From: Cyanobacteria bacterium FACHB-502
Lineage (GTDB): Bacteria > Cyanobacteriota > Cyanobacteriia > Elainellales > Elainellaceae
Reading direction: 5' to 3'
Assembly (NCBI GenBank): GCA_014695325.1
Contig: JACJNZ010000093.1
Span: 21,915 to 53,914 of the forward strand
DNA: 32,000 nucleotides
Part shown: positions 1,510-24,049 of the stretch, in pieces
Numbering within the stretch: the first letter of the stretch is position 1
Layout: every line of letters begins with the position of its first letter
Notes under the pieces: generated by a model
What the model saw: the letters and a program-made list of their open reading frames with translations, nothing else
Told to the model about the DNA's origin: nothing
Databases searched by the model: none
Position numbers and translations under genes: made by a program

Positions 1510-1650
1510 AAGAAGAGGGTTTTGAAAGGCTCTGGTTCAGTCCCTCATCATGACATGATCCCAATATTTTTGCTTAGAATTCGTAGAACTTTGCGTGTAT
1601 TGGGGATACGATTCTGGCATCATTGAGTGCGAAGGGATAGTGGAACAGCA

Positions 1651-2289: not shown

Positions 2290-3184
2290 TTTAAAGGATG
2301 AGTGGCAGTTTGAGGCTGAAAGCACTTCAGATAAGCAAAGTCTCCCAATTAGTTCAATCGTCCTGCCACCTAGTCAGCCCCGGCGCTACTTTGACCCTGA
2401 GAAGCTTCGACAGCTTACAGAATCAGTTCGACAGCACGGAGTTCTTGAACCTGTTCTGGTGCGACCTGCTGGGAAGGAAGGTCTGTACGAGCTGGTTGCT
2501 GGGGAACGAAGATTTAGAGCCGCCCAGGAAGTGGGGTTGACTGATATCCCGGTAACAGTTCGAGAATTGAGTGATGAGGAAGCTCTACAGCTTGCCCTGG
2601 TTGAGAACTTGCAGCGTGAGGACTTAAACCCTGTTGAAGAGACAGAGGGAATTCTGCAATTGCTAGCTCTCAGGCTCAAAATCGAACCGATCGACGTTCC
2701 TCCTCTCCTCTACAAGATGCGAAATGAGGCGATCGGCACAGTTAATCAAAACGTTTTGATTAACTCTCAAGCGGAGGCAGTTCAAGCTGTTTTTGCTGAA
2801 GTGGGAACGATTACCTGGGAGTCGTTTGTGACAAGTCGGCTACCCCTGCTCCGGTTGCCACCAGAAATTCTTGAGGCTCTCCGCAGTGGCAAGCTGGCTT
2901 ACACTAAAGCGCAGGCGATCGCTCGTGTGAAGGATGATAATCAGCGCAAGGAACTTCTAGAGGAAGCAGTTTCACAAGACTTGTCTCTAAGTCAGATTAA
3001 GGACAAGATAGCTGTTCTCAAATCTCCTAAGACGAGCAATGACAGCGAGCTTTCTCTAAGGAGCCAGATTGATGACGTCTTGCAGTTGGCAAAGCGATCT
3101 AAGGTTTGGGATAACCCCAAGAAGCAACGAAAACTAGAAAAGATATTGGCGGATCTCAAAACTCTGATTAGTAATACTGACTAA
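2273..3184 (+). CDS. parB: ParB/Spo0J-family partition protein
   Basis: ParB N-terminal domain motifs are present: PRRYFDPEKLRQLTESVRQHGVLEPVLVRP, LVAGERRFRAAQEVGL, ALVENLQREDLNPVEE. The start overlaps the parA 3' end by 17 nt. Confidence 0.9.
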   Translation: MARRNSLKDEWQFEAESTSDKQSLPISSIVLPPSQPRRYFDPEKLRQLTESVRQHGVLEPVLVRPAGKEGLYELVAGERRFRAAQEVGLTDIPVTVRELSDEEALQLALVENLQREDLNPVEETEGILQLLALRLKIEPIDVPPLLYKMRNEAIGTVNQNVLINSQAEAVQAVFAEVGTITWESFVTSRLPLLRLPPEILEALRSGKLAYTKAQAIARVKDDNQRKELLEEAVSQDLSLSQIKDKIAVLKSPKTSNDSELSLRSQIDDVLQLAKRSKVWDNPKKQRKLEKILADLKTLISNTD

Positions 3185-3301
3185 TTGCTACTAGATAGGG
3201 ATCTTGATTGGAAGCACGAGTACTCACGAGGTAGATGAGTGGGTCAAGGTAATCAAGGCAATGGGGTGTATAAAAACAAATTAGAGTTAGATAGGGGGAC
3301 G

Positions 3302-3904
3302 ATGAAATATAGTATGTCTTTTACAACAGGCACTTTATTTCATCAGGAGTCAGTGAAGCTTGCCGGATTGTTCCTGGAGTTTCAGAACTGGAATCTCGTT
3401 CGGAGTGCCGTTCTCTCAAAAAATCTTTTACAGTCTCGAACTGTAAACACTTCAAAACGAGTTTGTAGGGAAGTTTGTTCTAGGTTGAGGACTCTTAGTG
3501 CAGCGCAGCTTGATTTACTAGTTCATGGGTCTACCCAGGATCAAGGCTACCTCTTGTGGCTAGCTGTTTGCCGCCGTTACAAATTCATTGCAGATTTTGC
3601 TGTAGAAATCGTTAGGGAAAAGTATATCAGCTTGCAATTTGCGCTCAATTATGACGATTTTGACTTCTTCTTCAATAAAAAGTCCGAATGGCATGGGGAA
3701 TTAGACCAGATTAAGCCAGCAACAAGAACGAAAACACGTCAGATTCTCTTCAAGATGCTGAGAGAGGCGGATCTCCTAACCCCTAATAACATAATCAACG
3801 CAGCCCTGCTTAGTCCTCAACTCCTTAGCGTTATTTCCCAGGACAATCGTCAGGATATTTTGATTTTTCCAGCGTTTGAATCCGACTTGAAGGAATGGGC
3901 ATAA
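3302..3904 (+). CDS. brxA: BREX protein BrxA (DUF1819-like), 200 aa from ATG 3302
   Basis: It is the first gene of a brxA-B-C-pglX-pglZ-brxL array. The size and the N-terminus YSMSFTTGTLFHQESVKLAGLF are typical of BrxA. The GTG at 3239 would add 21 unconserved-looking residues. Confidence 0.8.
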   Translation: MKYSMSFTTGTLFHQESVKLAGLFLEFQNWNLVRSAVLSKNLLQSRTVNTSKRVCREVCSRLRTLSAAQLDLLVHGSTQDQGYLLWLAVCRRYKFIADFAVEIVREKYISLQFALNYDDFDFFFNKKSEWHGELDQIKPATRTKTRQILFKMLREADLLTPNNIINAALLSPQLLSVISQDNRQDILIFPAFESDLKEWA

Positions 3905-4515
3905 TGAACTTGGTCGTAAGTAAAAACAATATGAAAGAACGGTTTCATCATTTATTCTCTGTTATCGCTGGGAAACGCTTCCTCCAGAAGCAGGGACTGG
4001 GTAATGAGGTGCCGTTTTTCATCTGCCCATTCAAGCCAGAAGAGTCCGTTGAAATGGAACAGTTGCAAAAGCAGCTTGTCAATCGACTGGAACAGTCTGG
4101 AGTCAGAGTCCTAGAAATTAATCTCTACGATCTCTCGGTTAAGCTGTTGAAAGAACGGGAGATTTGGGAGCAAATCCTTAGTGTGGAGCAGTCTACTTCA
4201 AAAGCTGAACTGAAGGAGCTTTTACAGGGTGTCCTTGATCCAGAAACTCATTTGGTTCCTGCTGTTGCAAGCCAAATCAAAAGCACTGAGTTTGATGTGA
4301 TGTTCATATCAGGAGTAGGACAAGTTTTTCCATACATCCGTTCCCACAATGTGTTGAACAACCTGCAAAGTACAGCTAAGGAAAAACCAACGGTTATGTT
4401 TTTTCCGGGTGACTACACCCATTCCTTAGAATCTGGTGCATCCCTTGATCTTTTCGGCAGACTGCACGACGACAAATACTACCGAGCCTTCAATATCTTT
4501 CACTGCGAAGTCTAA
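3895..4515 (+). CDS. brxB: BREX protein BrxB (DUF1788-like)
   Basis: About 200 aa with FHHLFSVIAG..FL...GLGNEVPFFICPFKPEE and FFPGDY near the C-terminus, in the position between brxA and brxC. An alternative start at ATG 3904 gives a TAATG overlap with the brxA stop. Confidence 0.85.
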   Translation: MGIMNLVVSKNNMKERFHHLFSVIAGKRFLQKQGLGNEVPFFICPFKPEESVEMEQLQKQLVNRLEQSGVRVLEINLYDLSVKLLKEREIWEQILSVEQSTSKAELKELLQGVLDPETHLVPAVASQIKSTEFDVMFISGVGQVFPYIRSHNVLNNLQSTAKEKPTVMFFPGDYTHSLESGASLDLFGRLHDDKYYRAFNIFHCEV

Positions 4516-4529
4516 GCGGGAAACCCACC

Positions 4530-7500
4530 ATGATGCTAAGCACTATTTTCGAGAAACCTGTCGATCGCCCAATTGAGGGGGTTATCAAGGCAGATGATGA
4601 GGTGAGTCTCCGGCTAGAACTTGAGGAATACATCCTAACCCGTGAAGTAGAAAAGCGACTTGAAGCATTTCTAGACGCATACATTGGCTATGAGGGGGCT
4701 AATGGGGTATGGCTATCAGGTTTCTTCGGCTCTGGCAAGTCTCACCTACTGAAAATGCTGGCACTGTTGCTGGAGAATCGGGAAATTGAGGGAACGCCTG
4801 CGATTGATTGGTTTTTACCGAAGTGCAACCACAATGAAGTCCTTCGGGGCAATTTAAGACGAGCTGTTGCCATTCCGTCAAAAAGCATTTTGTTCAATAT
4901 TGACCAGAAGGCTGATGTAATTAGCAAGACTGAATTCGATGCCTTACTGTCGGTCTTTGTAAAAGTCTTCGATGAAATGTGTGGGTACTATGGCAAGCAA
5001 GGACATATTGCCCAGTTTGAGCGCCATCTTGATAGTCGCGGTTTGTACGATGCTTTTAAGGAAGAGTATCAACTTGTTACAGGTAGGCCCTGGCATATGG
5101 GTAGGGAACAAGCGCTGCTAGAAGGCAAGAATATTGCAAAAGCGTATTCAAAAGTTACGGGTGACTTAGAGGATTCTGCTGCCGGAATTCTTGATAGATA
5201 CAGAAGCCAGTACAAAGTGTCTATTGAGGACTTTGCAGAGCAGGTAAAAGACTTCGTAGACAAGCAAGCACCTAATTTTCGGTTGAACTTTTTTGTTGAT
5301 GAGGTTGGGCAATACATCGCTGAAAACGTGAAGCTGATGACTAATCTGCAAACCATTGCAGAGAGTCTAGCAACTAAGTGTCGAGGGCGGGCCTGGGTAA
5401 TTGTTACTGCCCAAGAAGACATGGATGCGGTAATTGGGGAGATGGGTCATCAGCAAAGTAACGACTTTACAAAGATTCAAGCTCGGTTTGCAAATCGCAT
5501 GAAGCTAACCAGCCAGGACGTAGCAGAAGTTATCCAGAAGCGCTTGTTGGCGAAGAATGGGGAGGGTACAACGCTACTTACGGATGTCTATCGAAATCAA
5601 GTCAATAATTTCAAGACTTTGTTTGATTTTGCGGATGGCTCACAAACCTACCGAAACTTTCAGGATCAGGAGCATTTCATCCATAGCTATCCCTTCATTC
5701 CCTACCAATTCGCGTTATTTCAAGCTGCCATCAAGTGCCTATCGCAGCATAACGCCTTTGAAGGGAAACATAGCTCCGTCGGCGAACGATCGATGTTAGG
5801 TGTCTTTCAAGAGGTCGCGGTTCGAATTGGTTCTCAGGATTTGGGGCGGCTCGCAACCTTTGACCTTATGTTTGAGGGCATCCGCACCACACTAAAATCA
5901 AATATTCAACGCTCCGTTTTGCAAGCCGAGAACCATCTTGACAGTCCTTTTGCCATTCGTTTGCTGAAAACACTCTTTTTGGTCAAGTATGTCAAGGAGT
6001 TTAAACCGACACTGCGAAATTTGTGTGTCTTGATGCTGGAGAGCTTTGAGCAGGATTTAACCCAGTTACGTAAGCAAGTTGAGGAAGCACTCAGCCTTCT
6101 GGAGCAGCAGACCTACATCCAGCGCAATGGTGAGATGTATGAGTATTTGACCGATGAGGAGAAAGACGTTGAGCAGGAGATTAAGAACACGGAGGTAGAA
6201 GCATCCGATGTTGCTGAGGAGCTAGAAAAGCTCATTTTCGACCACATTATTAAGACTCGCAAGATTCGTTACGACAATAATGGGCAGGACTACTCGTACT
6301 CTCGAAAGCTCGACGATCGCCTTCAAAGTCGCGAGTATGAGTTAGCCATTCATATCATTACCCCCTTCCATGAGCATGCAGACGACATGCCGGTTTTGCA
6401 GATGCAAAGCATGGGTCGAGATGAACTGTTGGTGGTGATGCCATCAGACGATCTCCTGGTTAGGGACATCTTAATGTATAAGCGGACTGAGAAGTACATT
6501 AAGCAGAATATGTCTGTAACCCAGCAGGAAGTAATTAAGCGAATTCTAACGGACAAGGGTTTTTACAACCGGGAACGCCATACCGAATTGCAAAAACTGT
6601 TGCAAAGACTGTTGGGTAAAGCAAAGCTTTTTGTTTCTGGTACAGAGCTTGAGATTGGGAGTGAGGATGCTCAAAGCCGTATTATCAAGGGCTTTCACGA
6701 ACTGGTTACAAGAGTGTATCCCAATCTAAGGATGCTACGGGGGGTTCTCTATACTGAGGCTGATATTGGTAACTGCCTTAACCACTCCCAAGAGAGTTTG
6801 TTTGGTAGTGATGTTACAAGCTTGGCAGAGTCTGAACAAGAAATGATTGCCTTCATTCAAAGCAATCATCGAGGGGGTGTTCGCACTACTCTGAAATCTT
6901 TGCTGGAGCGGTTTGAGCGCAAGCCCTACGGATGGTACTACGCTGCAATCCTTTGTAATTTGGCAAAACTCTGCGCCCGGGGCAAGGTAGAACTGCGAAC
7001 GGACGGAAACCTTCTGGAAGATGATGACCTGGAACGGGCAATTCGTAACTCCCATGGACATGCCAATGTAGTTCTTGAGCCGCAGGTTGACTTCACGGCA
7101 TCCCAGGTTCGCAATCTGAAAGATTTTTATGCCGACTTTTTTGACACCCCACCTAGTTCAGGGGAGGCAAAAGCTTTAGGGAAAGAAACAGGTGTGGCAT
7201 TTCAGGAACTGAAACATTCTTTGACACCATTAGCGTCTCAAGTGTCTCAATACCCGTTCCTTAGCGCTCTAACTCCAGTACTCAACACGCTTAAGGACAT
7301 TTGTGGCAAACCCTATACCTGGTATCTCACCGAGTTACTTCGACAAGAAGATGCCCTTCTTGATTTGAAGGAGAAGGTGATTGATCCAGTCCGCAAGTTC
7401 ATGAATGGACCGCAGAAGGGGATTTTTGATGATGCTACAAAGTTCGTACAAGCTCAGCAACCAAATTTTGCCTATATCAGTGGTGATGAATCTGGGCAGG

Positions 7501-8090
7501 TAGTTGCAGCCTTAGCAGATCCAGAGTGCTTCAAGGGCAATCGGATGCAACAGTTGAAGGTGCTGATCGACTCTCTAGAGTCCACGGTATCAGCCCAAAT
7601 TGCTCTGGAAATAACTGAGGCACAAACAGCGGTGAATGTGTTGAGAAGCCGTTTGTGTAGTATGGATGAGTTTTCTGCTCTCACGCCAGAACAGCAGCAG
7701 CAGTTGACCCGACCGTTCGGTGCTTTTGAAGCTGAGATCGCCCAGCAAAAACTCATTGCTGTGATTCGCGACACGTTACGACAATTTGAGGAAACCGAGT
7801 ATCCGCAGTTGCTATCGCGAATGACCACTTGGGCACAGTCTGTTCCTTCTCCCGCAGATAATCGAGGAACAACCGATACAACACCCTCTACCTCTTACAG
7901 CGGTGCTAGCACCTCAGATGCAAGAACTACGGTTGCAGAACCCAAAATTGAATATGTTTCTAGCAAATCTGTGCGGGTTCCATTTGACAAAGCATGGTTG
8001 GCTGACGAAGCAGATGTAGATCGCTATTTAGCTGCTATGCGGAAAACTTTACTGGCAGAGATTCAGAGTGGGAAGAGAATTCAAATATGA
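4530..8090 (+). CDS. brxC: BREX ATPase BrxC/PglY (1186 aa)
   Basis: P-loop GFFGSGKSHLLKML near the N-terminus and FVDEVGQY Walker B. The ~1200 aa size and the position are typical of type 1 BREX BrxC. Confidence 0.93.
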   Translation: MMLSTIFEKPVDRPIEGVIKADDEVSLRLELEEYILTREVEKRLEAFLDAYIGYEGANGVWLSGFFGSGKSHLLKMLALLLENREIEGTPAIDWFLPKCNHNEVLRGNLRRAVAIPSKSILFNIDQKADVISKTEFDALLSVFVKVFDEMCGYYGKQGHIAQFERHLDSRGLYDAFKEEYQLVTGRPWHMGREQALLEGKNIAKAYSKVTGDLEDSAAGILDRYRSQYKVSIEDFAEQVKDFVDKQAPNFRLNFFVDEVGQYIAENVKLMTNLQTIAESLATKCRGRAWVIVTAQEDMDAVIGEMGHQQSNDFTKIQARFANRMKLTSQDVAEVIQKRLLAKNGEGTTLLTDVYRNQVNNFKTLFDFADGSQTYRNFQDQEHFIHSYPFIPYQFALFQAAIKCLSQHNAFEGKHSSVGERSMLGVFQEVAVRIGSQDLGRLATFDLMFEGIRTTLKSNIQRSVLQAENHLDSPFAIRLLKTLFLVKYVKEFKPTLRNLCVLMLESFEQDLTQLRKQVEEALSLLEQQTYIQRNGEMYEYLTDEEKDVEQEIKNTEVEASDVAEELEKLIFDHIIKTRKIRYDNNGQDYSYSRKLDDRLQSREYELAIHIITPFHEHADDMPVLQMQSMGRDELLVVMPSDDLLVRDILMYKRTEKYIKQNMSVTQQEVIKRILTDKGFYNRERHTELQKLLQRLLGKAKLFVSGTELEIGSEDAQSRIIKGFHELVTRVYPNLRMLRGVLYTEADIGNCLNHSQESLFGSDVTSLAESEQEMIAFIQSNHRGGVRTTLKSLLERFERKPYGWYYAAILCNLAKLCARGKVELRTDGNLLEDDDLERAIRNSHGHANVVLEPQVDFTASQVRNLKDFYADFFDTPPSSGEAKALGKETGVAFQELKHSLTPLASQVSQYPFLSALTPVLNTLKDICGKPYTWYLTELLRQEDALLDLKEKVIDPVRKFMNGPQKGIFDDATKFVQAQQPNFAYISGDESGQVVAALADPECFKGNRMQQLKVLIDSLESTVSAQIALEITEAQTAVNVLRSRLCSMDEFSALTPEQQQQLTRPFGAFEAEIAQQKLIAVIRDTLRQFEETEYPQLLSRMTTWAQSVPSPADNRGTTDTTPSTSYSGASTSDARTTVAEPKIEYVSSKSVRVPFDKAWLADEADVDRYLAAMRKTLLAEIQSGKRIQI

Positions 8091-9250
8091 TCACAAGACT
8101 CGAACTCACAGATTTTACTGTTTTTACGAAACTAGGGGTTGATTTTTCACCAAAAGTCAACTTAATTGTCGGTCATAACGGCACTGGAAAGACACATCTG
8201 CTTAAAGCTGCCTATAGCCTTTGTGCAGGTGCAACTATCTTTAAAGACAAGCCAGATGCCAGTGAAGCCGAGATCCAGGCAGCGCTTACAACCAAATTGC
8301 TGCGTCTCTTTACGCCTATAGAAGGAAAACTTGGCAAGCTGCGCCGCTATGGTGCAAAAAAAAATGCTCAAATGCAAGCTCATTTTGCACTGGGTGGGCA
8401 ATTAAAGCTGTCTTTTCATTCCAACTCGAAAGTATTAACTATTCAGGATAGTAATAGTTACGGTGAATACCAGGAAGCAGCAGTTTATATTCCAACAAAA
8501 GAAGTTCTTTCCTTGATCAAGGGCATAAGCAATAAAGAGCATGATCCAAAAACTGTCGAGCTTATCTTTGATGCTAGCTACCTTGATCTTGTAGCAAACC
8601 TTATGCGTCCCAGCTACGAGGACCCTGAAGCCGAACTTGCCCTTGACCCACGGTTTAGCTCTATAGTTCCCATGTTAGTTAACCTTATAGGAGGAAAATA
8701 TTGCTGGGAAGGTGGCGACTTTTACTTCCAATCTGGGAGCTATGAAGAGAAAGCTGATCCAGATCGACCCAAAGGTCAACATGCTCAGAGCTATCAGGAT
8801 TCTACAGTAGCTCGCTTTAAACCGACCAAGGATCCAGTGTACGCCAGCAGTATGACTGCTGAAGGTTTTAGAAAGATCGGGATACTCCATCGATTACTCT
8901 GCAACGGAACGTTGAACCCTGGTGTGAGTGGTCCATTGTTCTGGGATGAACCTGAATCTAATCTGAATCCCAAGATGATGAAGCATTTAGTGCAGGTTCT
9001 ATTGGAGCTATCTCGAAATGGTCAGCAAATTATACTTGCAACGCATGATTATGTTTTGCTCAAATGGTTTGACTTATTAATGGACAAGGGCAAGGAAGAT
9101 CATGTGAGATTCCATGCACTTTATCGAGATGCTGAATCTCACGAGATCAGGATAGAAAGCATGGACGATTACAACTTAATAAGCAAATCAGCAATTTCGG
9201 ATACATTTGCTGAACTTTACGACGCAGATGTAAGAAGAGCATTGGAGTAG
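8087..9250 (+). CDS. ABC/SMC-type (AAA_15/AAA_21-like) ATPase embedded in the BREX operon
   Basis: RecF/SMC-like N-terminus ITRLELTDFTVF...NLIVGHNGTGKTHLLKA (Walker A at 8171-8194), signature-like SMTAEGFRKI, Walker B LFWDEPESNLNP and H-loop ILATHD. Its ATG overlaps the brxC stop (ATGA at 8087-8090). Confidence 0.85.
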   Translation: MITRLELTDFTVFTKLGVDFSPKVNLIVGHNGTGKTHLLKAAYSLCAGATIFKDKPDASEAEIQAALTTKLLRLFTPIEGKLGKLRRYGAKKNAQMQAHFALGGQLKLSFHSNSKVLTIQDSNSYGEYQEAAVYIPTKEVLSLIKGISNKEHDPKTVELIFDASYLDLVANLMRPSYEDPEAELALDPRFSSIVPMLVNLIGGKYCWEGGDFYFQSGSYEEKADPDRPKGQHAQSYQDSTVARFKPTKDPVYASSMTAEGFRKIGILHRLLCNGTLNPGVSGPLFWDEPESNLNPKMMKHLVQVLLELSRNGQQIILATHDYVLLKWFDLLMDKGKEDHVRFHALYRDAESHEIRIESMDDYNLISKSAISDTFAELYDADVRRALE

Positions 9251-9257
9251 GAAAAGA

Positions 9258-9803
9258 ATGCAAACATACAAGGCAGAAACCAATGCGGAACTACTTTTCT
9301 CTTTTCCTGACGAACTTGAGTGGAGCGAACTTGATAGACAAGGTGTCAAACTACCAGTTCGAATGAAGTTTGTTGATCTCGTTATAGAAAGGGAAAAAGA
9401 TGTACTACTTGTTGAGATTAAAGATCCATCGCATTCAAAATCTCCTCATAATGAGCGAAATAGTTACTTAAAGCGATTATTAGATAACTCTATCTTGACG
9501 CAAGAATTGACACCCAAAGCTAGGGATTCATACGCCTTTTTGCATCTTATGGAACAGGATAGTAAACCATTTAAGTATGTTGTCTTAATTGGGCTTGATG
9601 CATTTGATGCAAATCATCAGAAAGCAGTTCTTACTGGATTTAAAGATCGTTTATTGGCTGATATTCGTTGTGAAGCCTACGAGGCGTGGAAACGCAAACA
9701 CATACAAGATTGCCTAGTATTGTCAGTTGATAGCTGGAATGCAATGTTTCCTGAATGGCCCATCAAAAGGCTGACTGGAACCGCTGTCTCAGGAGGCATT
9801 TAG
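9258..9803 (+). CDS. 181-aa protein of unknown family with a PD-(D/E)xK-like motif (putative small nuclease partner of the ATPase)
   Basis: The ATG lies 7 nt after the ATPase stop, with GGAG upstream, and the ORF ends 5 nt before the pglX ATG. FVDLVIEREKDVLLVEIKD gives D40...E53-x-K55 (9375-9422), with acidic residues in the N-terminal helix (E7, E11). The nuclease assignment is an inference from this motif only. Confidence 0.7.
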   Translation: MQTYKAETNAELLFSFPDELEWSELDRQGVKLPVRMKFVDLVIEREKDVLLVEIKDPSHSKSPHNERNSYLKRLLDNSILTQELTPKARDSYAFLHLMEQDSKPFKYVVLIGLDAFDANHQKAVLTGFKDRLLADIRCEAYEAWKRKHIQDCLVLSVDSWNAMFPEWPIKRLTGTAVSGGI

Positions 9804-9808
9804 GCATT

Positions 9809-12800
9809 ATGGACACCTCAAAACTCAAGAAGTTTGCTCAGTTTGCACGTCGTCGCTTGATGGAGGAGGTTGCAGCCAAGTTGAAATTGGTGCTGGCTCA
9901 AGATAGTGTGGCGCGGCGGGAGAGCGGGGAAGCTGTGCTGAAACTAGAAGAGCAGATTAAATCCCATAGCCAAGAGTGGGTAATTGAACGCATAGCCTAC
10001 ACTTGGTTCAACCGCTTCTGTGCATTGCGATTTATGGATGTGAATCGCTACACCCGTATTGGAGTAGTGTCTCCAGCAGAAGGGCAGTTTCAACCAGAAA
10101 TTTTGGCTGAGGCAAAGATGGGGCACATCGATGAAGAAATGGTGCCTCAGCCAATTCAAAAAAAGATTTTTGGTTTCTTAGATGGCTCTTTGCCTAGTCC
10201 CGATTCACAGACTGAAGCATATCGTTTGCTGGTAGTTGCCGCCTGCAATAGCTACCACAAAGCAATGCCCTACTTATTTGAGCGGATTGATGACTACACT
10301 GAATTGCTAATGCCAGATGACTTGCTTTCTGGTAATTCCATCCTGGCTTACACCCGCGAGGCGATGACGCCGGATGCCTGTGAGGATGTGGAAGTACTGG
10401 GCTGGCTGTACCAGTTCTACATCTCTGAGAAAAAAGATGCGGTGTTTACCGACCTCAAGAAGAATAAGAAGATCACTCCAGAGAATATCCCGGCAGCGAC
10501 CCAACTCTTCACGCCCCATTGGATTGTGCGCTACCTGGTGGAGAATTCGCTCGGTCGTCTGTGGCTGCTGAACCGTCCCAAGTCGCGGCTGATTGAGCAA
10601 ATGGAGTATTACATCCAGTCCGACCAGGCAGAGACAGAATTTCTGCGGATCAGCAAACCGGAAGACATCAAGATTTGCGACCCTGCTTGTGGCTCTGGGC
10701 ATATGTTGGTCTATGCATTTGACCTGCTGTACGCCATCTATGAAGAGGAAGGCTACGAGCCGTCGGAAATACCAGAAAAGATTTTGACCTATAACCTGTA
10801 TGGCATTGAGATTGATGAACGAGCTGGGACATTAGCAGCCTTTGCTTTGACGATGAAAGCAAGAGCTAAACAGCGTCGTTTCTTCCGTAAGCCGATCCAA
10901 CCAAATATTTGCATATTAGAAAGCATTCAGTTTGGTGACGGTGAACTGAAGGATTACATGGATTTTGTTGGACGGAATCTGTTTACGGCTCCCCTACTAG
11001 AAACTCTGCATCAGTTTAGAGAAGCAGACAATTTTGGGTCTTTAATTCGTCCAGAGATGACAGATGTCAAAGATATTTTGAGATTGTTAGAAGAGCAGGA
11101 TGTTGGGGGACAGTTACTGCTTTATCAAATTCATCAGAAAGTGTTGAAAGTATTGCAGCAGGCAGACTATCTTAGCCCTAAGTACCATATAGTGGTCGCT
11201 AATCCACCTTATATGGGTGGAAGGGGAATGAATGGTCGGCTTGGCGCTTGGATAAAAGATAATTATGCAGACAGTAAGTCTGATCTTTTTGCCGTATTCA
11301 TCGAGCGAAATCTGGAATTAGCACAACATCGAGGCATGGTCAGCATGATTACCATGCAAAGCTGGATGTTTTTGTCAGCTTTTGAAAAACTGCGCTTGCA
11401 CTTGCTCAATTATAAAACCATTCTATCAATGGTGCACATTGGAGCGCGGGGGTTTGACAGCATTGGAGGCGAGGTAGTGTCTACTACTGCCTTTGTATTA
11501 GAAAATGCCCATCATGAAGCTTTGAAAGGGCAATATTTGCGCCTTGTTGATGGTCAATCTGAAGCAGAAAAAGATAGCGCCCTAAAACAGGCAATCGTCA
11601 ATCCCAACTGTGGTTGGTTCTATCGTGCCTCTTCAGCAGACTTCACGAAAATTCCTGGTAGTCCGATCTCTTACTGGCTAAGTACAAGGTTTGTCGAAAT
11701 TTTTAGAAATCCAAAAGTATCTGAATATTCTATTGCTGAAAGCAGCCAATGCCTTACAGGAAACAATGACAAGTACTTGCGATTTGTTTGGGAAATCGAT
11801 CGCAATAAATTTGGATACCAAAAAAAATGGCTATCTTATGCGAAAGGTGGGCCATTTCGTAAGTGGTATGGCAATCTTAATAACGTCATTAATTGGAGTG
11901 ATGAGGCAATTGAACATTATCGGACTTCCAAAGTTCCGCGTATTATTCCTGAGTATATTTGGTATAAACCAGGAATCACATGGGGTTTCATCACAACAAC
12001 ACTACCAAGTTTTAGATTGTTGCCGGAAGCAGCAGTTTTTGACGTAGGTGGAAGTTCAATATTCTTTAAAGACGATTCTGATATCAATTATTTTCTGGGA
12101 TTGTTCAACACGAACCTAGCATTAAAAATTGTTAGTGCTTTCAATCCAACGATAAATTTTCAGCTAAAAGATATTAGGAATATACCTACACTCGATCTTA
12201 ATTCGAGTATTAGGCCGAGAGTTGAAATGATAGTTGCAAGCTGTCAAAAACTTTCCCAGCAAGATTGGGACTCTGCCGAGACTTCATGGGAATTTACGAA
12301 CTTAACGCTGCTGTCTAGAGATTTACGTCAGCCATCCATAAACGCCACATACCAAAGGCTCCGCGCCTATTGGTGGGAAATGACTCAAAAAATGCAGCAG
12401 CTTGAGGAAGAAAACAACTGCATCTTCATCGAAGCCTACGGACTTCAGGACGAACTCACACCCGACGTTCCTCTTAATGAAGTTACTATCAACTGCAACC
12501 CCCTCTATCGCTATGGCGGTGACAAAACTAAAGATGAACTAGAAGCTCTATTGCTAGCCGATACCATGCGCGAGTTCATCTCCTACGCCGTCGGCTGTAT
12601 GTTTGGTCGCTACTCCCTCGACAAACCCGGTCTTATCCTCGCCAACCAGGGCGAAACCATCGAAGACTACCTCCAGCAAATTCCTAACCCCACCTTCCCC
12701 GCTGACACCGATAATGTCATCCCCATGCTTGACGGAGACTGGTTCCCTGACGACATCTCCGAACGCTTCCGTAAGTTCCTGCGCATTACCTTCGGTGAAG

Positions 12801-13291
12801 AACACTACGAAGCCAACCTCAAATTCATTGAAAAAGCTCTAGGCAAAGACATCCGCAGGTACTTCCTGCGCGACTTCTACAACGATCACGTCCGTCGCTA
12901 CAAAAAGCGCCCGATCTACTGGCTCTTCTCCAGTCCCAAAGGCACCTTCAACGCCCTCATCTACATGCACCGCTACCGTCCTGACACCGTTAGCGTCGTG
13001 CTCAACGACTACCTGCGCGAGTTCCGCACTAAGCTGGTCGCCCACAGGAACCACCTGGAGCAGGTGAGCATCAGCACCGCTGCTTCTGCCGCAGAAAAGA
13101 CCAAAGCCTTGAAGGAAATCGAAAATCTCAGGAAGGCGATCGATGAGTTAGAGAGCTACGAGCGGGAAGTACTTTATCCTTTGGCAACAGAACGGGTAGA
13201 AATCGACTTGGACGATGGCGTTAGGATAAACTACGGCAAGTTTGGTGCAGCTCTGAAAAAAATACCGGGTCTTGAGGCAGTAGAAGATTAG
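9809..13291 (+). CDS. pglX: BREX N6-adenine DNA methyltransferase PglX (1160 aa from ATG 9809)
   Basis: The N-terminus MDTSKLKKFAQFARRRL is typical of PglX. The SAM-binding motif is ICDPACGSGHML and the catalytic motif is VVANPPYMG (NPPY at 11201-11212). AGGAGG at 9791-9796 precedes ATG 9809. The ATG at 9755 in the ORF track overlaps the upstream gene and is unlikely. Confidence 0.93.
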   Translation: MDTSKLKKFAQFARRRLMEEVAAKLKLVLAQDSVARRESGEAVLKLEEQIKSHSQEWVIERIAYTWFNRFCALRFMDVNRYTRIGVVSPAEGQFQPEILAEAKMGHIDEEMVPQPIQKKIFGFLDGSLPSPDSQTEAYRLLVVAACNSYHKAMPYLFERIDDYTELLMPDDLLSGNSILAYTREAMTPDACEDVEVLGWLYQFYISEKKDAVFTDLKKNKKITPENIPAATQLFTPHWIVRYLVENSLGRLWLLNRPKSRLIEQMEYYIQSDQAETEFLRISKPEDIKICDPACGSGHMLVYAFDLLYAIYEEEGYEPSEIPEKILTYNLYGIEIDERAGTLAAFALTMKARAKQRRFFRKPIQPNICILESIQFGDGELKDYMDFVGRNLFTAPLLETLHQFREADNFGSLIRPEMTDVKDILRLLEEQDVGGQLLLYQIHQKVLKVLQQADYLSPKYHIVVANPPYMGGRGMNGRLGAWIKDNYADSKSDLFAVFIERNLELAQHRGMVSMITMQSWMFLSAFEKLRLHLLNYKTILSMVHIGARGFDSIGGEVVSTTAFVLENAHHEALKGQYLRLVDGQSEAEKDSALKQAIVNPNCGWFYRASSADFTKIPGSPISYWLSTRFVEIFRNPKVSEYSIAESSQCLTGNNDKYLRFVWEIDRNKFGYQKKWLSYAKGGPFRKWYGNLNNVINWSDEAIEHYRTSKVPRIIPEYIWYKPGITWGFITTTLPSFRLLPEAAVFDVGGSSIFFKDDSDINYFLGLFNTNLALKIVSAFNPTINFQLKDIRNIPTLDLNSSIRPRVEMIVASCQKLSQQDWDSAETSWEFTNLTLLSRDLRQPSINATYQRLRAYWWEMTQKMQQLEEENNCIFIEAYGLQDELTPDVPLNEVTINCNPLYRYGGDKTKDELEALLLADTMREFISYAVGCMFGRYSLDKPGLILANQGETIEDYLQQIPNPTFPADTDNVIPMLDGDWFPDDISERFRKFLRITFGEEHYEANLKFIEKALGKDIRRYFLRDFYNDHVRRYKKRPIYWLFSSPKGTFNALIYMHRYRPDTVSVVLNDYLREFRTKLVAHRNHLEQVSISTAASAAEKTKALKEIENLRKAIDELESYEREVLYPLATERVEIDLDDGVRINYGKFGAALKKIPGLEAVED

Positions 13292-13293
13292 CA

Positions 13294-15087
13294 ATGGCTG
13301 GCGAATACGAAAAGGCAATCACTATTGAGAGAGCGGTTCAGCATGTGGTGAACCGTAAGTATCTGCTGCCTGCCATTCAGCGAAAATTCACCTGGAGCAG
13401 TTCGCAAATTTGCACCCTCTTTGACTCCATCATGCGGGGGTACCCCATCAACACCTTTATGTTTTGGGAAGTCAAAGACCCTGAAGTCAAAAAGAGCTTC
13501 CGTTTCTATCAGTTCTTAGAACGTTACTGTGAGCGATTTGAAGAAAATAATCCAGAATTCAGCACTACTGGGCATGGTGATTTTCATGCGGTGATTGATG
13601 GTCAGCAGCGCCTGACCTCGCTATACATCGGCTTGAAGGGCACCTACGCCTACAAACTATCCCGCAAGTGGTGGCCCAAAACGAAGGACGATAGTATTCT
13701 TCCCCCTCGCCGCCTCTATCTAAATCTAGCCAAGCCGCTAGACGAAGAAGAAAACGAGGAGATGATGGGCTATGAATTCCGCTTTCTGACAGCTTCTCAG
13801 TGGCAAGCCGACCAAGCCAAACCAGACAAATTCTGGTTTCTGGTTGGCGATATTCTGGACTGGCCCAACGCTGAAGCCGACGATGACATCCTCGATATCG
13901 TGATGGATTTTCTGGGAAAGGCAGGACAAACCGAAAATCGTTTTGCCCGCAAGACCTTGACCCGTCTCTACTTTGCGATCCGACGAGATCAGGTCATCCA
14001 CTACTACAACGAAACCAACCAGACCATCGATCATGTGTTGGATATCTTCATCCGCACCAACCACGGCGGCACCCCTCTGGCATTTTCTGACTTATTAATG
14101 TCGATCGCCATTGCTAATTGGCGGCACGACGCTCGGCAACAGATCGATGACCTGGTAGATGCAGTGCGGTTCGGCGCAGATATGGAGTTCTCGATCAATC
14201 GAGATTTCGTACTGAAGACAGCCTTGACGCTAACCGATGCTGATGTCCGATTTAAAGTGAAGAACTTCACCAACGATCAGGTGGGCAAGGTCGAGCAAGA
14301 ATGGGAAAACATTAAAGCCTGCATTCTGGCAACTTTTCGCCTCATTCGATCCTTTGGTCTCAATGATTCATCCCTACGCGCCAAAAATGCAGCGATTCCC
14401 ATTGCTTACTATCTTTACAAGAAGCATCTCTGGACAGAAATTAATAAGCCTCTAGAGAAATACACCCCTGAACGCAAGGCTATCCGGCAGTGGCTTCATA
14501 TGTCGCTCTTGAAGGGTGTGTTTGGGGGACAAGCCGATTCGGTCCTCACCAACCTCCGAAAAGTGATCAGAGACCACCTCGCTGAGCCACTCTTTCCACT
14601 GGCTCACATCGTTGAAGAATACCGTGGGAAAAGTAAGGATCTGCGGTTCGACGACGACTTCATCGATCGCCTGCTCAAAACTCAGAAAGACGACCCTGCT
14701 TGCTTCTCAATTTTGGCTTTGATTCAGCCTGATCTGAATTACAACCTGGCTTTAGACAAAGACCATCTGCATCCTGGAATCGCGTTTTCCCCTAACCGAC
14801 TGGATACGTATGAGTTTTTAACCGATGACGCAGACCTGAGAGCCTTTTACCAGAATCCAGATTACTGGAACAGCATCGTCAATCTACAACTACTAGACGC
14901 TTCCAGAAACCGTTCTAAGCTGGATGAACCATTAAAAGACTGGTTTGCGCGGCAGACGGGGCTAACTCTAACACAGTTACACATTCCGGATGGAACCAGT
15001 TTGAACTTTGAGGACTTTCAGACGTTTTTCTGGGCGCGATCGCAGCATCTGAAACAGCTCTTCCAATCTCTTGGAGAGGTGGTCTAA
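13294..15087 (+). CDS. DUF262/DUF1524 (GmrSD/BrxU-like) putative type IV modification-dependent nuclease
   Basis: N-terminal DUF262/ParB-like NTPase motifs IQRKFTWS, LFDSIMRGYPIN and IDGQQRLTSLYIGL (DGQQR at 13597-13611). The C-terminus has a His-Me/HNH-like DKDHLHPG ... NLQLLDASRNRSK. It starts 2 nt after the pglX stop, and its stop overlaps the pglZ ATG (TAATG at 15085-15089). Confidence 0.85.
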   Translation: MAGEYEKAITIERAVQHVVNRKYLLPAIQRKFTWSSSQICTLFDSIMRGYPINTFMFWEVKDPEVKKSFRFYQFLERYCERFEENNPEFSTTGHGDFHAVIDGQQRLTSLYIGLKGTYAYKLSRKWWPKTKDDSILPPRRLYLNLAKPLDEEENEEMMGYEFRFLTASQWQADQAKPDKFWFLVGDILDWPNAEADDDILDIVMDFLGKAGQTENRFARKTLTRLYFAIRRDQVIHYYNETNQTIDHVLDIFIRTNHGGTPLAFSDLLMSIAIANWRHDARQQIDDLVDAVRFGADMEFSINRDFVLKTALTLTDADVRFKVKNFTNDQVGKVEQEWENIKACILATFRLIRSFGLNDSSLRAKNAAIPIAYYLYKKHLWTEINKPLEKYTPERKAIRQWLHMSLLKGVFGGQADSVLTNLRKVIRDHLAEPLFPLAHIVEEYRGKSKDLRFDDDFIDRLLKTQKDDPACFSILALIQPDLNYNLALDKDHLHPGIAFSPNRLDTYEFLTDDADLRAFYQNPDYWNSIVNLQLLDASRNRSKLDEPLKDWFARQTGLTLTQLHIPDGTSLNFEDFQTFFWARSQHLKQLFQSLGEVV

Positions 15088-17582
15088 TGGAAAATCGGAT
15101 TGCCCAGGCCTTAACCCGATTATTTGAGCGACATCGTATTATTTTCTGGTACGACGTTAAACGAGAATTGCGAGCTGACTTTGAGGGCTTGCAATTAGCA
15201 GGTGTTGAAAAGATCGAACTGACCAACAATGAGTTTGGGGTGAAGTACCGCATTCTGCGAGAGCAGCCGGCACAGAAGTTTTTGCTTTACCGGGAAGGAT
15301 CCCAACCCGATGACCTGGACAACTGGCTGCTCGATGTCCAACTAGCCCATGGTGAATTTCGCACTGATCAAATAGGACTGTGGCTTTCTGAACTGGAATT
15401 GGGACTCGATTTTGCTGATGTGGTGCAGGCTCACGCAGAATTTTATCGAGCCATTAAGCGCAAGGATGCTCTGAAGCGGCTGCTTAAACCAGATGACACA
15501 CCCGGCATGATTCGGCTCAAGATGCTAGCTGTGTGTGCAGGCTCAGAACCCCGCATTGATTCAGTGCTAGAAAATCTTCTAGCAGAGCTATCTGACAAGC
15601 GGGATGAAAAAATTAAACTGATTCAGCGTTGCAGTCTGGATAAGTTTCTCTGGGAACAGATGAAGCGACACTATGGCTACGATTCCAAGGAACCTGGTAT
15701 CCAAGACTTCAGCATTGAGCTATTCAAGTCCTGTTATGCCATGGGAACCGATGGACAGGTTCAACTGACCAGTGATGCGATCGTCTTTTTGAAGCGTTGG
15801 AAGGACAGCCGCCAATTTGAGGAGTCCTTTGAAACTCTTTCTGAGGAGTGTGCAGAGATCCTTGGGATTGAGCATGATTTAGGCAAGCGAGACTTTCGTG
15901 AACTGCTGGAGCTAGATTACTTCCGTTTAATTGACCAAAAGATCGTCAGCGATTTGGTACGTGCGGTAGCTTCAAGAACCGTCTCTAGTGGTGATGTGAC
16001 TCTTTGGGTGCGCCAACGACGACAAGGACATTGGTATCGTGAATTTCAGCATCTATATGAAGCTGTAGATTACGCATCCCAATTTATCCATGCTCTAGAT
16101 GAAGCGAACCTGACAATGGACTCTCTAACAGACGGCATTGAGCGCTATACCCGTTCTTGGTTTCGCATAGACCAGCTTTATCGCAAGTTTGTTTACCACG
16201 TCCGAGGCTCCGGGCAGGCTTCCTTGATGGCTACATTGAGCGACCAAATTGAGAAGCTTTATTCCAATAACTACTTACTAAAGGTGAACGATCGCTGGCA
16301 GTCCTTCGTTGATGTTGTAACGAAATGGGAAGCAGCATCTATTCCCCTGCAGAAAAACTTTTTCAAGCGTTGGGTACAACCCTTTCTAGAGAAAGACAAT
16401 AAAGTCTATGTCATCATCTCCGATGCTTTCCGGTATGAGATTGGTGATGAGTTGTTAAGCCTCATTCGCCAGGAAGATCGGTATGATGCCACGCTAGAAC
16501 CTGCCCTGTCTATGCTGCCCAGCTATACTCAGCTAGGCATGGCGGCTTTGCTACCCAATACAGTATTGACCTTGGCAGACAATCAAACTGGAACTGTAGA
16601 AGTCGATGGGCAAAGCTCACAAGGCACTGCTAACCGCATCAAAATCCTTGACCGCTCCAATCCACAACGAGCAACGGCGATCAAGGCAGAAGAACTTATG
16701 GCGCTGAATCGAGAAGACTGCCGATCGCTCGTGCGTGATCATGATGTTGTTTATATCTACCACAATCGCATCGATTCTACTGGTAAGCCAGTTACAGAAG
16801 ACCGGGTATTTGATGCAGTAGAAGAAACCCTTCAAGAGTTGATTCGATTGATTAAGAAGCTGACGGGGGCTAACGCCAGTAATCTGCTAGTGACTTCTGA
16901 TCATGGTTTTATCTATCAGAATCAAGCGATTGAGGAGAGCGACTTTGCCCAGGAAGAAGCAGAAGGTAATCAAATCCTGTTTCGAGATAGGCGCTTTGTT
17001 CTTGGCAAAGGATTGAAGGAAAAAGCAAGCTTCCGTAAGTTCCAATCATCAGAACTGGCACTGAAGGGCGATATAGAAGTCTTGATCCCTAAATCCATCA
17101 ACCGATTGCGTCTTAAGGGCTCAAGTATACGGTTTGTCCACGGTGGGGCATCACTGCAAGAAGTCGTGATTCCAGTTATTCGTATTAATAAAAAGCGACA
17201 GAGCGATATTTCTACCGTAGAAGTTGAGATTATCAGAGGTTCAAATTCAGCAATCACTTCTGGACAAGTGGCTGTTACCCTTTATCAAGCACAACCCGTA
17301 ACTGACAAAGTACAGTCGAGGAACCTGCGAGCTGGCATTTATACTCAGTCTGGAGATCTAATCTCTGATTCCCACGACCTGACATTTGATTTAACTTCAG
17401 ATAATCCAAGGGAACGGGAGCTGCAAGTTCGGTTTGTGCTGACCCGCAAGGCTGATGACGCTAACGGACAAGAGGTCATTCTGCGACTCGATGAAAAGCT
17501 GACAGGCACCTCACATTACAAAGAGTACAAATCACTTCGGTATATGATGCGACGGTCATTTACCAGTGATTTTGATTTTTAG
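15087..17582 (+). CDS. pglZ: BREX alkaline-phosphatase-fold protein PglZ
   Basis: N-terminus RIIFWYDVKRELRADFE. PglZ domain motifs VYVIISDAFRYEIGDEL and LLVTSDHGF. The 831 aa size and position are typical. Confidence 0.93.
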   Translation: MENRIAQALTRLFERHRIIFWYDVKRELRADFEGLQLAGVEKIELTNNEFGVKYRILREQPAQKFLLYREGSQPDDLDNWLLDVQLAHGEFRTDQIGLWLSELELGLDFADVVQAHAEFYRAIKRKDALKRLLKPDDTPGMIRLKMLAVCAGSEPRIDSVLENLLAELSDKRDEKIKLIQRCSLDKFLWEQMKRHYGYDSKEPGIQDFSIELFKSCYAMGTDGQVQLTSDAIVFLKRWKDSRQFEESFETLSEECAEILGIEHDLGKRDFRELLELDYFRLIDQKIVSDLVRAVASRTVSSGDVTLWVRQRRQGHWYREFQHLYEAVDYASQFIHALDEANLTMDSLTDGIERYTRSWFRIDQLYRKFVYHVRGSGQASLMATLSDQIEKLYSNNYLLKVNDRWQSFVDVVTKWEAASIPLQKNFFKRWVQPFLEKDNKVYVIISDAFRYEIGDELLSLIRQEDRYDATLEPALSMLPSYTQLGMAALLPNTVLTLADNQTGTVEVDGQSSQGTANRIKILDRSNPQRATAIKAEELMALNREDCRSLVRDHDVVYIYHNRIDSTGKPVTEDRVFDAVEETLQELIRLIKKLTGANASNLLVTSDHGFIYQNQAIEESDFAQEEAEGNQILFRDRRFVLGKGLKEKASFRKFQSSELALKGDIEVLIPKSINRLRLKGSSIRFVHGGASLQEVVIPVIRINKKRQSDISTVEVEIIRGSNSAITSGQVAVTLYQAQPVTDKVQSRNLRAGIYTQSGDLISDSHDLTFDLTSDNPRERELQVRFVLTRKADDANGQEVILRLDEKLTGTSHYKEYKSLRYMMRRSFTSDFDF

Positions 17583-17595
17583 GGGCAGGTGAATC

Positions 17596-23848: not shown

Positions 23849-24049
23849 AGCATATGGCGATGAATAAGTTTCCATAGGGAGCAAGCTGAACAGTTTGTGA
23901 CAATGACCCATCAATTTCAGCTTGAATTTTCCCCACCGTATTCCCGATTCAGGAAGCACACCGGTTGTTCCGGTTTATTCAAACCTTTTGTGTCGCGTGG
24001 GGAAGTTAGGCATAGTCGAAGGAGAAGTTGTGTTGATTTCAGGTAGAGA

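Follow-up and report, generated by a model that had tools for sequence, protein, structure and literature searches.

The locus

[quoted passage not shown] Two extra open reading frames on the same strand lie between brxC and pglX. A further embedded gene, brxU/HEC-05, lies between pglX and pglZ. The blocks and genes, with E-values where a model was matched, are as follows.

3239..8090, + strand: upstream host-operon block, brxA-brxB-brxC
3239-3904, + strand: brxA (PADLOC BrxA, 2.9e-80; Pfam BrxA domain)
3895-4515, + strand: brxB (PADLOC BrxB, 1.8e-71; Pfam BrxB domain)
4530-8090, + strand: brxC (PADLOC BrxC, E=0; Pfam BrxC domain)
8087..9250, + strand: HEC-02A, ABC-type (AAA_15/AAA_21) ATPase, 387 aa (PADLOC PDLC04213)
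9258..9803, + strand: HEC-02B, small putative NERD-like PD-(D/E)xK protein, 181 aa (PADLOC PDLC04220)
9809..19662, + strand: downstream host-operon block, pglX-brxU/HEC-05-pglZ-brxL
9809-13291, + strand: pglX (PADLOC PglX, E=0; Pfam Eco57I/MmeI_Mtase)
13294-15087, + strand: brxU/HEC-05 (PADLOC HEC-05, 7.7e-211; Pfam GmrSD_N, 1.2e-29)
15087-17582, + strand: pglZ (PADLOC PglZ, E=0; Pfam PglZ domain)
17596-19662, + strand: brxL (PADLOC BrxL, E=0; Pfam BrxL domain)

The extra pair and its junctions are as an earlier, sequence-only reading of this DNA had described them: the ATG of the ATPase gene overlaps the brxC stop codon (ATGA), and the small gene follows the ATPase stop after 7 nt, with its own end 5 nt short of the pglX ATG. 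The start of pglX was taken as 9809, as alignments to the PglX models begin at the first residue encoded from there; a longer in-frame ORF, from 9755, exists. The start/stop overlaps and the absence of convincing internal signals fit a single operon comprising the pair and BREX, the promoter and terminator scans having given signals at or below shuffle expectation, which are uninformative. A scan of the DNA against Rfam gave no match.

The embedded BrxU/HEC-05 is GmrSD-like and DUF262-containing, and Payne et al. treat HEC-05 as equivalent to BrxU (bioRxiv 10.1101/2024.01.29.577857). The brxS/brxT genes of pEFER were considered as counterparts of the pair and rejected: both lie upstream, one encoding an IS3 transposase and the other a hypothetical protein, and brxU is all that pEFER embeds. 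The sequence context includes ParA/ParB, as on plasmids, and Leptolyngbya sp. FACHB-541 has the same gene layout and a protein with 99% identity; the window looks like a cyanobacterial (Leptolyngbya-like) plasmid. PLSDB yielded no close DNA match, in near or distant searches, to either the pair or the first 8 kb. A GUN4-like gene is also present.

Assignment to HEC-02

Detection models for HEC-02A and HEC-02B are contained in PADLOC-DB v2. At E 2.1e-109 and 364 bits, the PDLC04213 HEC-02A model aligns its positions 1-334 (of 337) with residues 1-386 of the ATPase. The PDLC04220 HEC-02B model aligns positions 1-168 (of 172) with residues 1-173 of the small protein at E 8.6e-73, and eight other PADLOC HEC-02B models match the small protein too. 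At E<=0.01 the small protein matches HEC-02B models only in PADLOC, and it matches nothing in Pfam, the Pfam NERD family included, or in NCBIfam. The sequence-only reading had proposed a two-gene defense module inside BREX that combines an ABC-type ATPase with a compact PD-(D/E)xK-like protein, and the full-length matches support this. It had also taken the pair to be undescribed and the 181-aa ORF to belong to no family that it could name, and it had set a match to a described system against its own proposal; such a match is what the PADLOC models returned. Because HEC-02 has already been phage-tested and modelled, the claim of novelty falls.

HEC-02, or Hma-embedded candidate 2, was described by Payne, Hughes, Fineran & Jackson as an ABC ATPase with a NERD-like PD-(D/E)xK protein, and in E. 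coli it gives phage protection for which both genes are needed (bioRxiv 10.1101/2024.01.29.577857). The tested pair came from Dickeya dianthicola NCPPB 3534, where it is Hma-embedded, and a cassette embedded in BREX/DISARM/RM was merged by the authors into the HEC-02 model (bioRxiv 10.1101/2024.01.29.577857). The literature searched contained no biochemical study of HEC-02.

The window pair resembles this system in that an ABC ATPase is followed on the same strand, in tight coupling, by a putative NERD-like PD-(D/E)xK protein of ~170-180 aa, and in that the ATPase motifs and the (D/E)xK motif are shared. There are also differences. The window proteins are 31% (HEC-02A, E 1e-38) and 27% (HEC-02B) identical to their Dickeya counterparts, the window clade carries an extra ~35 aa insert in the ATPase before the signature motif, and it is BREX-located, rather than Hma-embedded, in all close copies for which enough of the surroundings is available. 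Because identity to the tested pair is only 31% and 27%, we infer the anti-phage activity of the window subfamily from that of the Dickeya homologue.

Sequence features of the two proteins

The ATPase matches Pfam AAA_21 (2.6e-17) and AAA_15 (5.5e-14), and its PDB matches, which are at the motif level only, are to the ABC ATPases EcfA, PtuA, Rad50, FtsE, and UvrA. The following features were located in the two proteins.

8171..8194, + strand: Walker A/P-loop GHNGTGKT, G29-T36, the lysine being K35
8741..8836, + strand: clade-specific ATPase insert (residues ~219-250, ~35 aa) directly preceding the signature-like motif
8849..8875, + strand: ABC signature-like SMTAEGFRK, S255-K263
8936..8971, + strand: Walker B and D-loop region LFWDEPESNLNP, L284-P295
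9041..9049, + strand: H-loop THD, T319-H320-D321
9375..9422, + strand: putative catalytic core of the small protein, D40 ... E53-x-K55, then D56

The ATPase motifs and the positions of D40, E53, and K55 agree with those read earlier from the letters, and they are kept across homologues, so that the motifs of both proteins are not chance occurrences. In the ATPase, G29, N31, G32, T33, G34, and K35 of Walker A (Dickeya included), A258, E259, G260, and K263 of the signature-like motif, W286, D287, E288, P289, E290, N292, N294, and P295 of the Walker B/D-loop region, and all three H-loop residues are each kept in at least 25 of 26 homologues. The insert is clade-specific: in the alignment it is found in the window protein and in the related loci L001, L005, L017, and L028, is shorter in L039, and is missing from Dickeya, L031, L034, L036, and L040. 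The ATPase has 387 residues, compared with 337 positions in the PADLOC HEC-02A model.

Homologues of the small protein form 341 representative clusters at 50% identity; none was found in phage genomes. Among 112 homologues that are 26-54% identical to it, D40 is kept in 111, E53 in 110, K55 in 107, and D56 in 102, and the (D/E/Q)xK phosphodiesterase motif expected of HEC-02B is present in the window protein. The near-invariance of D40, E53, and K55, the putative catalytic residues, across these diverse sequences is a new result of the present analysis. A departure from the family pattern is seen at alignment position 9, a glutamate in 96/112 homologues, where the window protein and ~40% of the members of its close clade have asparagine. 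The AF2 model (pLDDT 79, pTM 0.78) predicts that D40 precedes a strand at residues 41-44 and that E53 and K55 lie inside a strand at residues 49-55; Foldseek with this model gave weak matches, mostly to PD-(D/E)xK nucleases. The weak Pfam matches of HEC-02B family members likewise all fall in PD-(D/E)xK families, and a PDB sequence search with the family profile returned chance-level matches only (ferritin, MukF).

Distribution and base composition

HEC-02A lies directly upstream of HEC-02B in 30/30 genome loci, and likewise in more distant copies. The pair also recurs in BREX loci: among 73 close BREX relatives the slot between brxC and pglX holds HEC-02 in 38, is empty in 9, and holds other cargo in 23. 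This spot is a common lodging site for add-on defense genes. HEC-02 is found there, upstream of pglX, from 99% down to 29% identity, and its pairwise divergence tracks that of BrxC (r=0.90 for HEC-02A and 0.81 for HEC-02B), the corresponding values for core BREX genes among themselves being 0.88-0.98. Copies are mostly chromosomal and BREX-embedded; a standalone copy lies beside plasmid replication genes on a Clostridium plasmid, which is consistent with an autonomous module. The range of identity over which the slot is kept, the co-divergence with BrxC, the slot occupancy, and the standalone copy are new here. In about ten loci, the domain hinge of PglX is the site of a split, and HEC-02 separates the methyltransferase half from the specificity half.

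The sequence-only reading had taken the AT-richness of the pair as the mark of an inserted cassette. Its hand-counted figure for 9421-9480, 20/60 GC, proved exact, and the two genes are modestly AT-richer than their neighbors (GC 0.43 and 0.39 and GC3 0.38 and 0.32, versus GC 0.42-0.49 and GC3 0.44-0.56 for the BREX genes). As a mark of recent insertion, however, this bias was rejected, since the GC3 deficit is repeated in 15/20 related loci, which is likewise a new finding. The recurrence of the deficit, together with the co-divergence with BrxC, indicates that the association between the pair and BREX is old.

Function of the pair

In all likelihood, the pair is an HEC-02 system, that is, a self-contained two-gene anti-phage module that occupies the slot between brxC and pglX, is co-expressed with BREX, and resides on an apparent Leptolyngbya-like plasmid.

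The old association with BREX might suggest a closer functional tie, in which HEC-02 would monitor BrxC/PglX or detect anti-BREX proteins, with Ocr-like DNA mimics and OrbA-like BrxC binders as candidate triggers, and the nuclease would fire upon loss of BREX, much as in the case of PrrC in EcoprrI. PrrC is the classic precedent of a guard that fires when its host system is inhibited, and Payne et al. suggested that embedded ABC-ATPase systems may back up the host system by such logic (bioRxiv 10.1101/2024.01.29.577857). The constancy of the slot across the whole range of identity, its occupancy by HEC-02 in about half of the close relatives, the divergence in step with BrxC at values near those of core BREX genes, and the overlap of the ATPase start with the brxC stop would all fit such a tie. 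The loci with a split PglX point the same way, as Ocr binds the PglX C-terminal domain; the clade-specific ATPase insert could then be the sensor, and the placement of the pair between the PglX halves could reflect physical assembly with PglX. However, the tested homologue, natively Hma-embedded, protects E. coli K-12 on its own, the host system being absent, a standalone copy exists in Clostridium, and BREX-embedded PARIS of Salmonella gave no response to Ocr (PMC11341690). Moreover, since some slots are empty and others hold unrelated cargo, a permissive hotspot and co-transfer may be all that lies behind the embedding. On balance, we consider a guard role for HEC-02 unlikely.

Far less probable still is the reading of the pair as a toxin-antitoxin-like or addiction module (AAA_21 "AbiEii-type") whose main role would be to stabilize the plasmid or BREX locus rather than to act against phages. 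The Pfam description of AAA_21, the plasmid context with ParA/ParB, the plasmid replication genes adjoining the standalone copy, and the persistence of the pair within mobile BREX loci would be in keeping with it, but a direct anti-phage phenotype is on record for the homologue, the majority of copies lie on chromosomes within BREX, and no antitoxin-like third gene accompanies the pair.

Relation to other ATPase-nuclease systems

That the pair is a divergent PARIS (AriA/AriB), Septu (PtuA/PtuB), Gabija, AbiL, or class 2 OLD system can practically be dismissed, and at the family level such membership is ruled out: AAA_15/AAA_21 is common to the window ATPase and PARIS/Septu/Gabija-type ATPases, but the matches to AriA (2e-18), AbiLi (2.7e-13), PtuA (1e-10), mad3, NsnB, and GajA in PADLOC are partial and span the P-loop or the Walker B/H-loop alone (33-65 bits versus 364 bits for HEC-02A), and the partner matches HEC-02B models only, with AriB, PtuB, Toprim, HNH, and DUF4276 absent. 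On the first three of these systems, the sequence-only reading had seen the same, finding neither a Toprim/DUF4435 nor an HNH signature in the partner.

PARIS resembles the window pair in combining an AAA_15/21-type ABC ATPase with a separate nuclease effector and in that it can sit in type 1 BREX, its embedding in an enterobacterial BREX, which the earlier reading had mentioned, being seen in Salmonella D23580 (PMC11341690). However, the best AriA model covers only residues ~248-325 of the window ATPase (65 bits), and AriB is a Toprim/DUF4435 protein, for which PADLOC, Pfam, and NCBIfam gave no match to the 181-aa putative PD-(D/E)xK effector of the window. Septu and Gabija likewise pair an ABC ATPase with nuclease activity, and Septu is itself embedded in the related BREX locus L003. 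PtuA and GajA, however, match only the N-terminal P-loop segment of the window ATPase (residues ~2-71 and 1-42, respectively, in PADLOC), and the window partner is neither an HNH protein such as PtuB, to which PADLOC gave no match, nor a helicase such as GajB; neither the Toprim domain of GajA nor a helicase gene was found with PADLOC and Pfam.

Two further comparisons are of interest. A PDC-M47/PD-T4-4-like pair, also an ABC ATPase (462 aa) with a small partner (189 aa), occupies the same slot in the sister BREX loci L083, L110, and L115, but its ATPase scores 7.7e-239 with PDC-M47A and only ~1e-15 with HEC-02A, and its partner matches PDC-M47B, not HEC-02B. PrrC is an effector containing an ABC-type ATPase inside a methylation-based defense operon, EcoprrI (type I R-M), but it is a single-protein anticodon nuclease for which physical control by EcoprrI has been demonstrated, whereas such coupling would be hypothetical for HEC-02.

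For HEC-02 as a self-contained module, analogy with other ABC-ATPase defense pairs makes restraint and release the likeliest mechanism, for which PARIS provides a plausible model of the ATPase scaffold. As in PARIS, Septu, and Gabija, an ATPase oligomer would hold the bound nuclease inactive, variable insert regions of the ATPase would sense an infection cue, and the ATPase would then license the nuclease, which would cut nucleic acid and stop the phage. Formation of an A:B complex, its trigger, its substrate, and any abortive-infection outcome are what we infer here.

Concluding remarks

As a claim of discovery, the pair carries little weight, in that PADLOC run on the contig would label it HEC-02 and the anti-phage phenotype of the system is published. 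On the other hand, the long residence of HEC-02 in its slot, seen in its presence in about half of the close relatives, its co-divergence with BrxC, and its occasional position inside a split PglX, makes the BREX-resident clade a reasonable system for testing the functional coupling of embedded defenses to their hosts.

BREX operon and embedded genes

A complete type 1 BREX operon lies on the forward strand of the window, and its six genes are top-scoring in PADLOC and Pfam searches. The gene order is as follows.

3239-3904 (+), brxA
3895-4515 (+), brxB
4530-8090 (+), brxC
8087-9250 (+), ABC ATPase HEC-02A, 387 aa
9258-9803 (+), small protein HEC-02B, 181 aa
9809-13291 (+), pglX
13294-15087 (+), GmrSD-like BrxU/HEC-05 (PADLOC E 7.7e-211; Pfam GmrSD_N)
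15087-17582 (+), pglZ
17596-19662 (+), brxL

The two additional same-strand ORFs that the sequence-only reading placed between brxC and pglX are indeed present: the ATPase start overlaps the brxC stop (ATGA), 7 nt separate the two ORFs, and 5 nt separate HEC-02B from the pglX ATG. The motifs assigned in that reading were recovered residue by residue, and its hand count of 20/60 GC in 9421-9480 is exact. BrxU/HEC-05 is a second embedded defence gene, between pglX and pglZ, so that the operon compared with the canonical one in that reading holds two embedded systems rather than one.

Identity of the pair

Both proteins are matched over their full length by PADLOC-DB models, the ATPase by HEC-02A (PDLC04213, E 2.1e-109, 364 bits) and the small protein by HEC-02B (PDLC04220, E 8.6e-73) and eight further HEC-02B models, with no match of the small protein to any other model in that database. 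Named ATPase-nuclease systems match the ATPase only at P-loop or Walker B/H-loop segments, at 33-65 bits (AriA, 2e-18; AbiLi, 2.7e-13; PtuA, about 1e-10; GajA, about 1e-9). In Pfam, the ATPase matches AAA_21/AAA_15 and the small protein has no match; NCBIfam covers neither with a specific model. The module had been called a candidate undescribed one, and a match to a described system model had been named as what would overturn this; the claim of novelty is thus refuted.

Payne, Hughes, Fineran and Jackson (bioRxiv 10.1101/2024.01.29.577857) described HEC-02 among nine "Hma-embedded candidates"; it is composed of an ABC ATPase and a NERD, PD-(D/E)xK-superfamily protein with a (D/E/Q)xK motif. 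Cloned in E. coli K-12, the pair from Dickeya dianthicola NCPPB 3534 lowered plaquing of BASEL phages, and defence required both genes (their Fig. S3). Their supplement lists a BREX/DISARM/RM-embedded cassette, CAS_00063 (count 347), as "incorporated into the HEC-02 model". The window ATPase is 31% identical to the Dickeya HEC-02A (E 1e-38) and the small protein 27% identical to its HEC-02B over 109 aa (E 1e-4); the two pairs belong to one family, the window pair to a divergent subfamily of it.

Features of the two proteins

Among 26 ATPase homologues, a set that takes in the Dickeya protein and copies with a partner at just 25% identity, at least 25 conserve the Walker A motif (G29, N31-K35), an I135-P136-x-K138 motif, the signature-like A258-E259-G260 with K263, Walker B (W286-D287-E288-P289-E290) and the H-loop (T319-H320-D321). 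Matches to PDB sequences are at motif level only, to ABC ATPases (EcfA, PtuA, Rad50, FtsE, UvrA). The window clade carries an insert of ~35 aa (residues ~219-250) directly before the signature motif, which is absent from the Dickeya protein and several other branches; inserts of this kind have been proposed to determine trigger specificity (Payne et al., bioRxiv 10.1101/2024.01.29.577857).

An exhaustive search returned 341 representative clusters of HEC-02B homologues, nearly all about 170 aa long. Across 112 aligned members (26-54% identity), D40 (111/112), E53 (110/112) and K55 (107/112) are near-invariant, as are V39, D56, K87, R89 and W144. Sub-threshold Pfam matches of single members are almost all to PD-(D/E)xK families (SfsA, SduA_C, DUF2726, NERD, Hjc, PDDEXK_14, TnsA-like). 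In an AlphaFold2 model built from 61 sequences (pLDDT 79, pTM 0.78), D40 directly precedes strand 41-44 and E53/K55 lie within strand 49-55, a predicted placement corresponding to the hairpin expected of PD-(D/E)xK.

At alignment position 9, in the N-terminal "EG-L-F-F" motif, 96/112 diverse homologues have Glu, where the window protein has Asn (N9, 9282-9284); within the close BREX clade the split is about 24 E to 23 N (N in about 40%).

Distribution and age of the association

The ATPase lies directly upstream of HEC-02B in 30/30 genome loci, which come from the Alpha-, Beta- and Gammaproteobacteria as well as from other phyla. All 29 copies at 62-80% identity are in type 1 BREX wherever the contig extends past the pair. 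pglX likewise directly follows the pair in copies at 55%, 52%, 49% and 29% identity, of which the 29% copy is carried by Methylomonas plasmid pLM6. On a Clostridium tagluense plasmid, a copy with 25% identity is standalone. Of the 30 genome loci, L029 alone (9303-10504, 41% identity) has its copy outside BREX, beside glycosyl hydrolase and transferase genes; the ATPase ORF there is short, at 227 aa, and corresponds to the N-terminal half of HEC-02A, so that this copy may be decaying. No copy was found in phage genomes. The closest HEC-02B (99%) is that of Leptolyngbya sp. FACHB-541, whose contig shares the window's layout, ParA-ParB-BREX-HEC-02-BrxU.

Pairwise distances correlate with those of BrxC at r = 0.90 for HEC-02A and 0.81 for HEC-02B, and for core BREX genes compared with each other r is 0.88-0.98. 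Of the proteins of the locus, HEC-02B is the most conserved (mean p-distance 0.25 vs 0.29-0.40). The AT-richness of the pair had been read as fitting an inserted cassette; its lower GC3 recurs in 15/20 loci, which makes it a trait of these genes themselves rather than evidence that they reached the window recently.

Metagenomes were scanned with the BrxC C-terminus, giving 73 assessable close BREX relatives. HEC-02 follows brxC in 38, brxC leads straight to pglX in nine, other inserts occur in 23, and three are unclear. The other inserts comprise Schlafen-AlbA2/HATPase_c_4 wHTH proteins, PDC-S13 (Bro-N) and a PDC-M47/PD-T4-4-like ATPase with a small partner. The brxC-pglX position is thus an embedding hotspot, of which HEC-02 is the most frequent occupant; it is mostly inherited with the BREX locus, yet often lost or replaced. 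In some sister BREX loci (L083 6905-8844, L110, L115) the position is taken by another ABC ATPase, of 462 aa, and a small partner (~189 aa), matching PDC-M47A/B, the ATPase also matching PD-T4-4_A (E 3e-164). The architecture parallels that of HEC-02, but the partner families are unrelated.

Split PglX and variable cargo in sister loci

PglX is divided between two intact, closely packed ORFs in about ten of the related BREX loci, and the HEC-02 pair lies between these ORFs. The N-half (~606 aa) holds a helical bundle and the methyltransferase, and the C-half (~597 aa) the specificity region; the break falls at about residue 600 of the window PglX, the equivalent of the hinge between NTD and CTD in Salmonella PglX (~661). 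The literature searched gave no account of PglX occurring naturally in split form. PglX is also split in L011 (10546-17742), but there a reverse transcriptase occupies the gap and HEC-02 lies upstream. This enzyme, a UG5-nitrilase DRT of ~1000 aa that is also present in L008, L010 and L014, lies between HEC-02B (or the PglX N-half) and the PglX C-half. In BREX loci with a 55% identical HEC-02B (L031 9417-13172, L032 10525-14280), PglX is 1251 aa long with an N-terminal GIY-YIG nuclease domain (precomputed Pfam).

Split PglX and cargo in sister BREX loci
L005 7045-12428; L006, L007, L008, L010, L012, L013, L014, L022, L042: split PglX with HEC-02 between the halves
L008 10555-13575; L010 and L014 10555-~13570; L011 12786-15755: UG5-nitrilase reverse transcriptase (PADLOC E=0)
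L003 14051-15963: Septu PtuA/PtuB
L010 15332-16357: PDC-S02
L003 6937-8706; L006 12577-14052: Schlafen-AlbA2 proteins

Surroundings in the window

ParA and ParB partition genes (1627-3184, +) lie directly upstream of brxA, as in the FACHB-541 contig (L038), with no BrxR/WYL regulator gene between. Further upstream, an IS6-family transposase (41-811, +) abuts a DUF1016/YhcG PD-(D/E)xK gene (PDC-S02; 808-1509, -) of 233 aa, in which the nuclease domain breaks off after its first ~40 residues; the gene is full length (350 aa) in FACHB-541 (L038 1196-2248), and the window copy was probably truncated by the IS6-family element. The partition genes, the IS6 element and a resolvase (30429-31025) suggest a plasmid; a cyanobacterial host would agree with the GUN4-like gene at 31470-31931.

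Downstream of BREX, a protein with a nucleotide modification associated domain 2 (Nmad2; 23186-23959, -; Pfam E 1.5e-53) and an ORF of 372 aa (20728-21846, -), for which a weak match to PDC-S18 (E 2e-7) is the only one, look like part of a wider defence island. Two ORFs overlapping at stop and start, a 404-aa protein with weak alpha/beta-hydrolase matches (25176-26390, +) and an NB-ARC/STAND NTPase of 1075 aa (26387-29614, +) that matches a PADLOC "caspase" model at its N-terminus (E 3.9e-15), form a candidate Avs-like or STAND defence pair.

Functional implications

Payne et al. proposed that embedded ABC-ATPase systems may back up their host system once phage anti-defence proteins disable it, citing Ocr with PARIS/Gabija as well as PrrC/EcoprrI; the family is therefore already published, and so is the hypothesis of the sequence-only reading. 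The observation underlying that reading was correct and its interpretation partly so. That the pair serves as a guard, backing up BREX when BREX is disabled, is considered unlikely, because the family also functions outside BREX, one copy is standalone and unrelated cargo is accepted at the brxC-pglX position. No mechanistic follow-up on HEC-02 was found in the literature searched; a restrain-and-release scheme, together with a trigger and a substrate, may be proposed for the pair by analogy with PARIS, Septu and Gabija. The best-supported reading is that the pair is an autonomous module of an ABC-ATPase sensor and a PD-(D/E)xK effector, co-transcribed with BREX.
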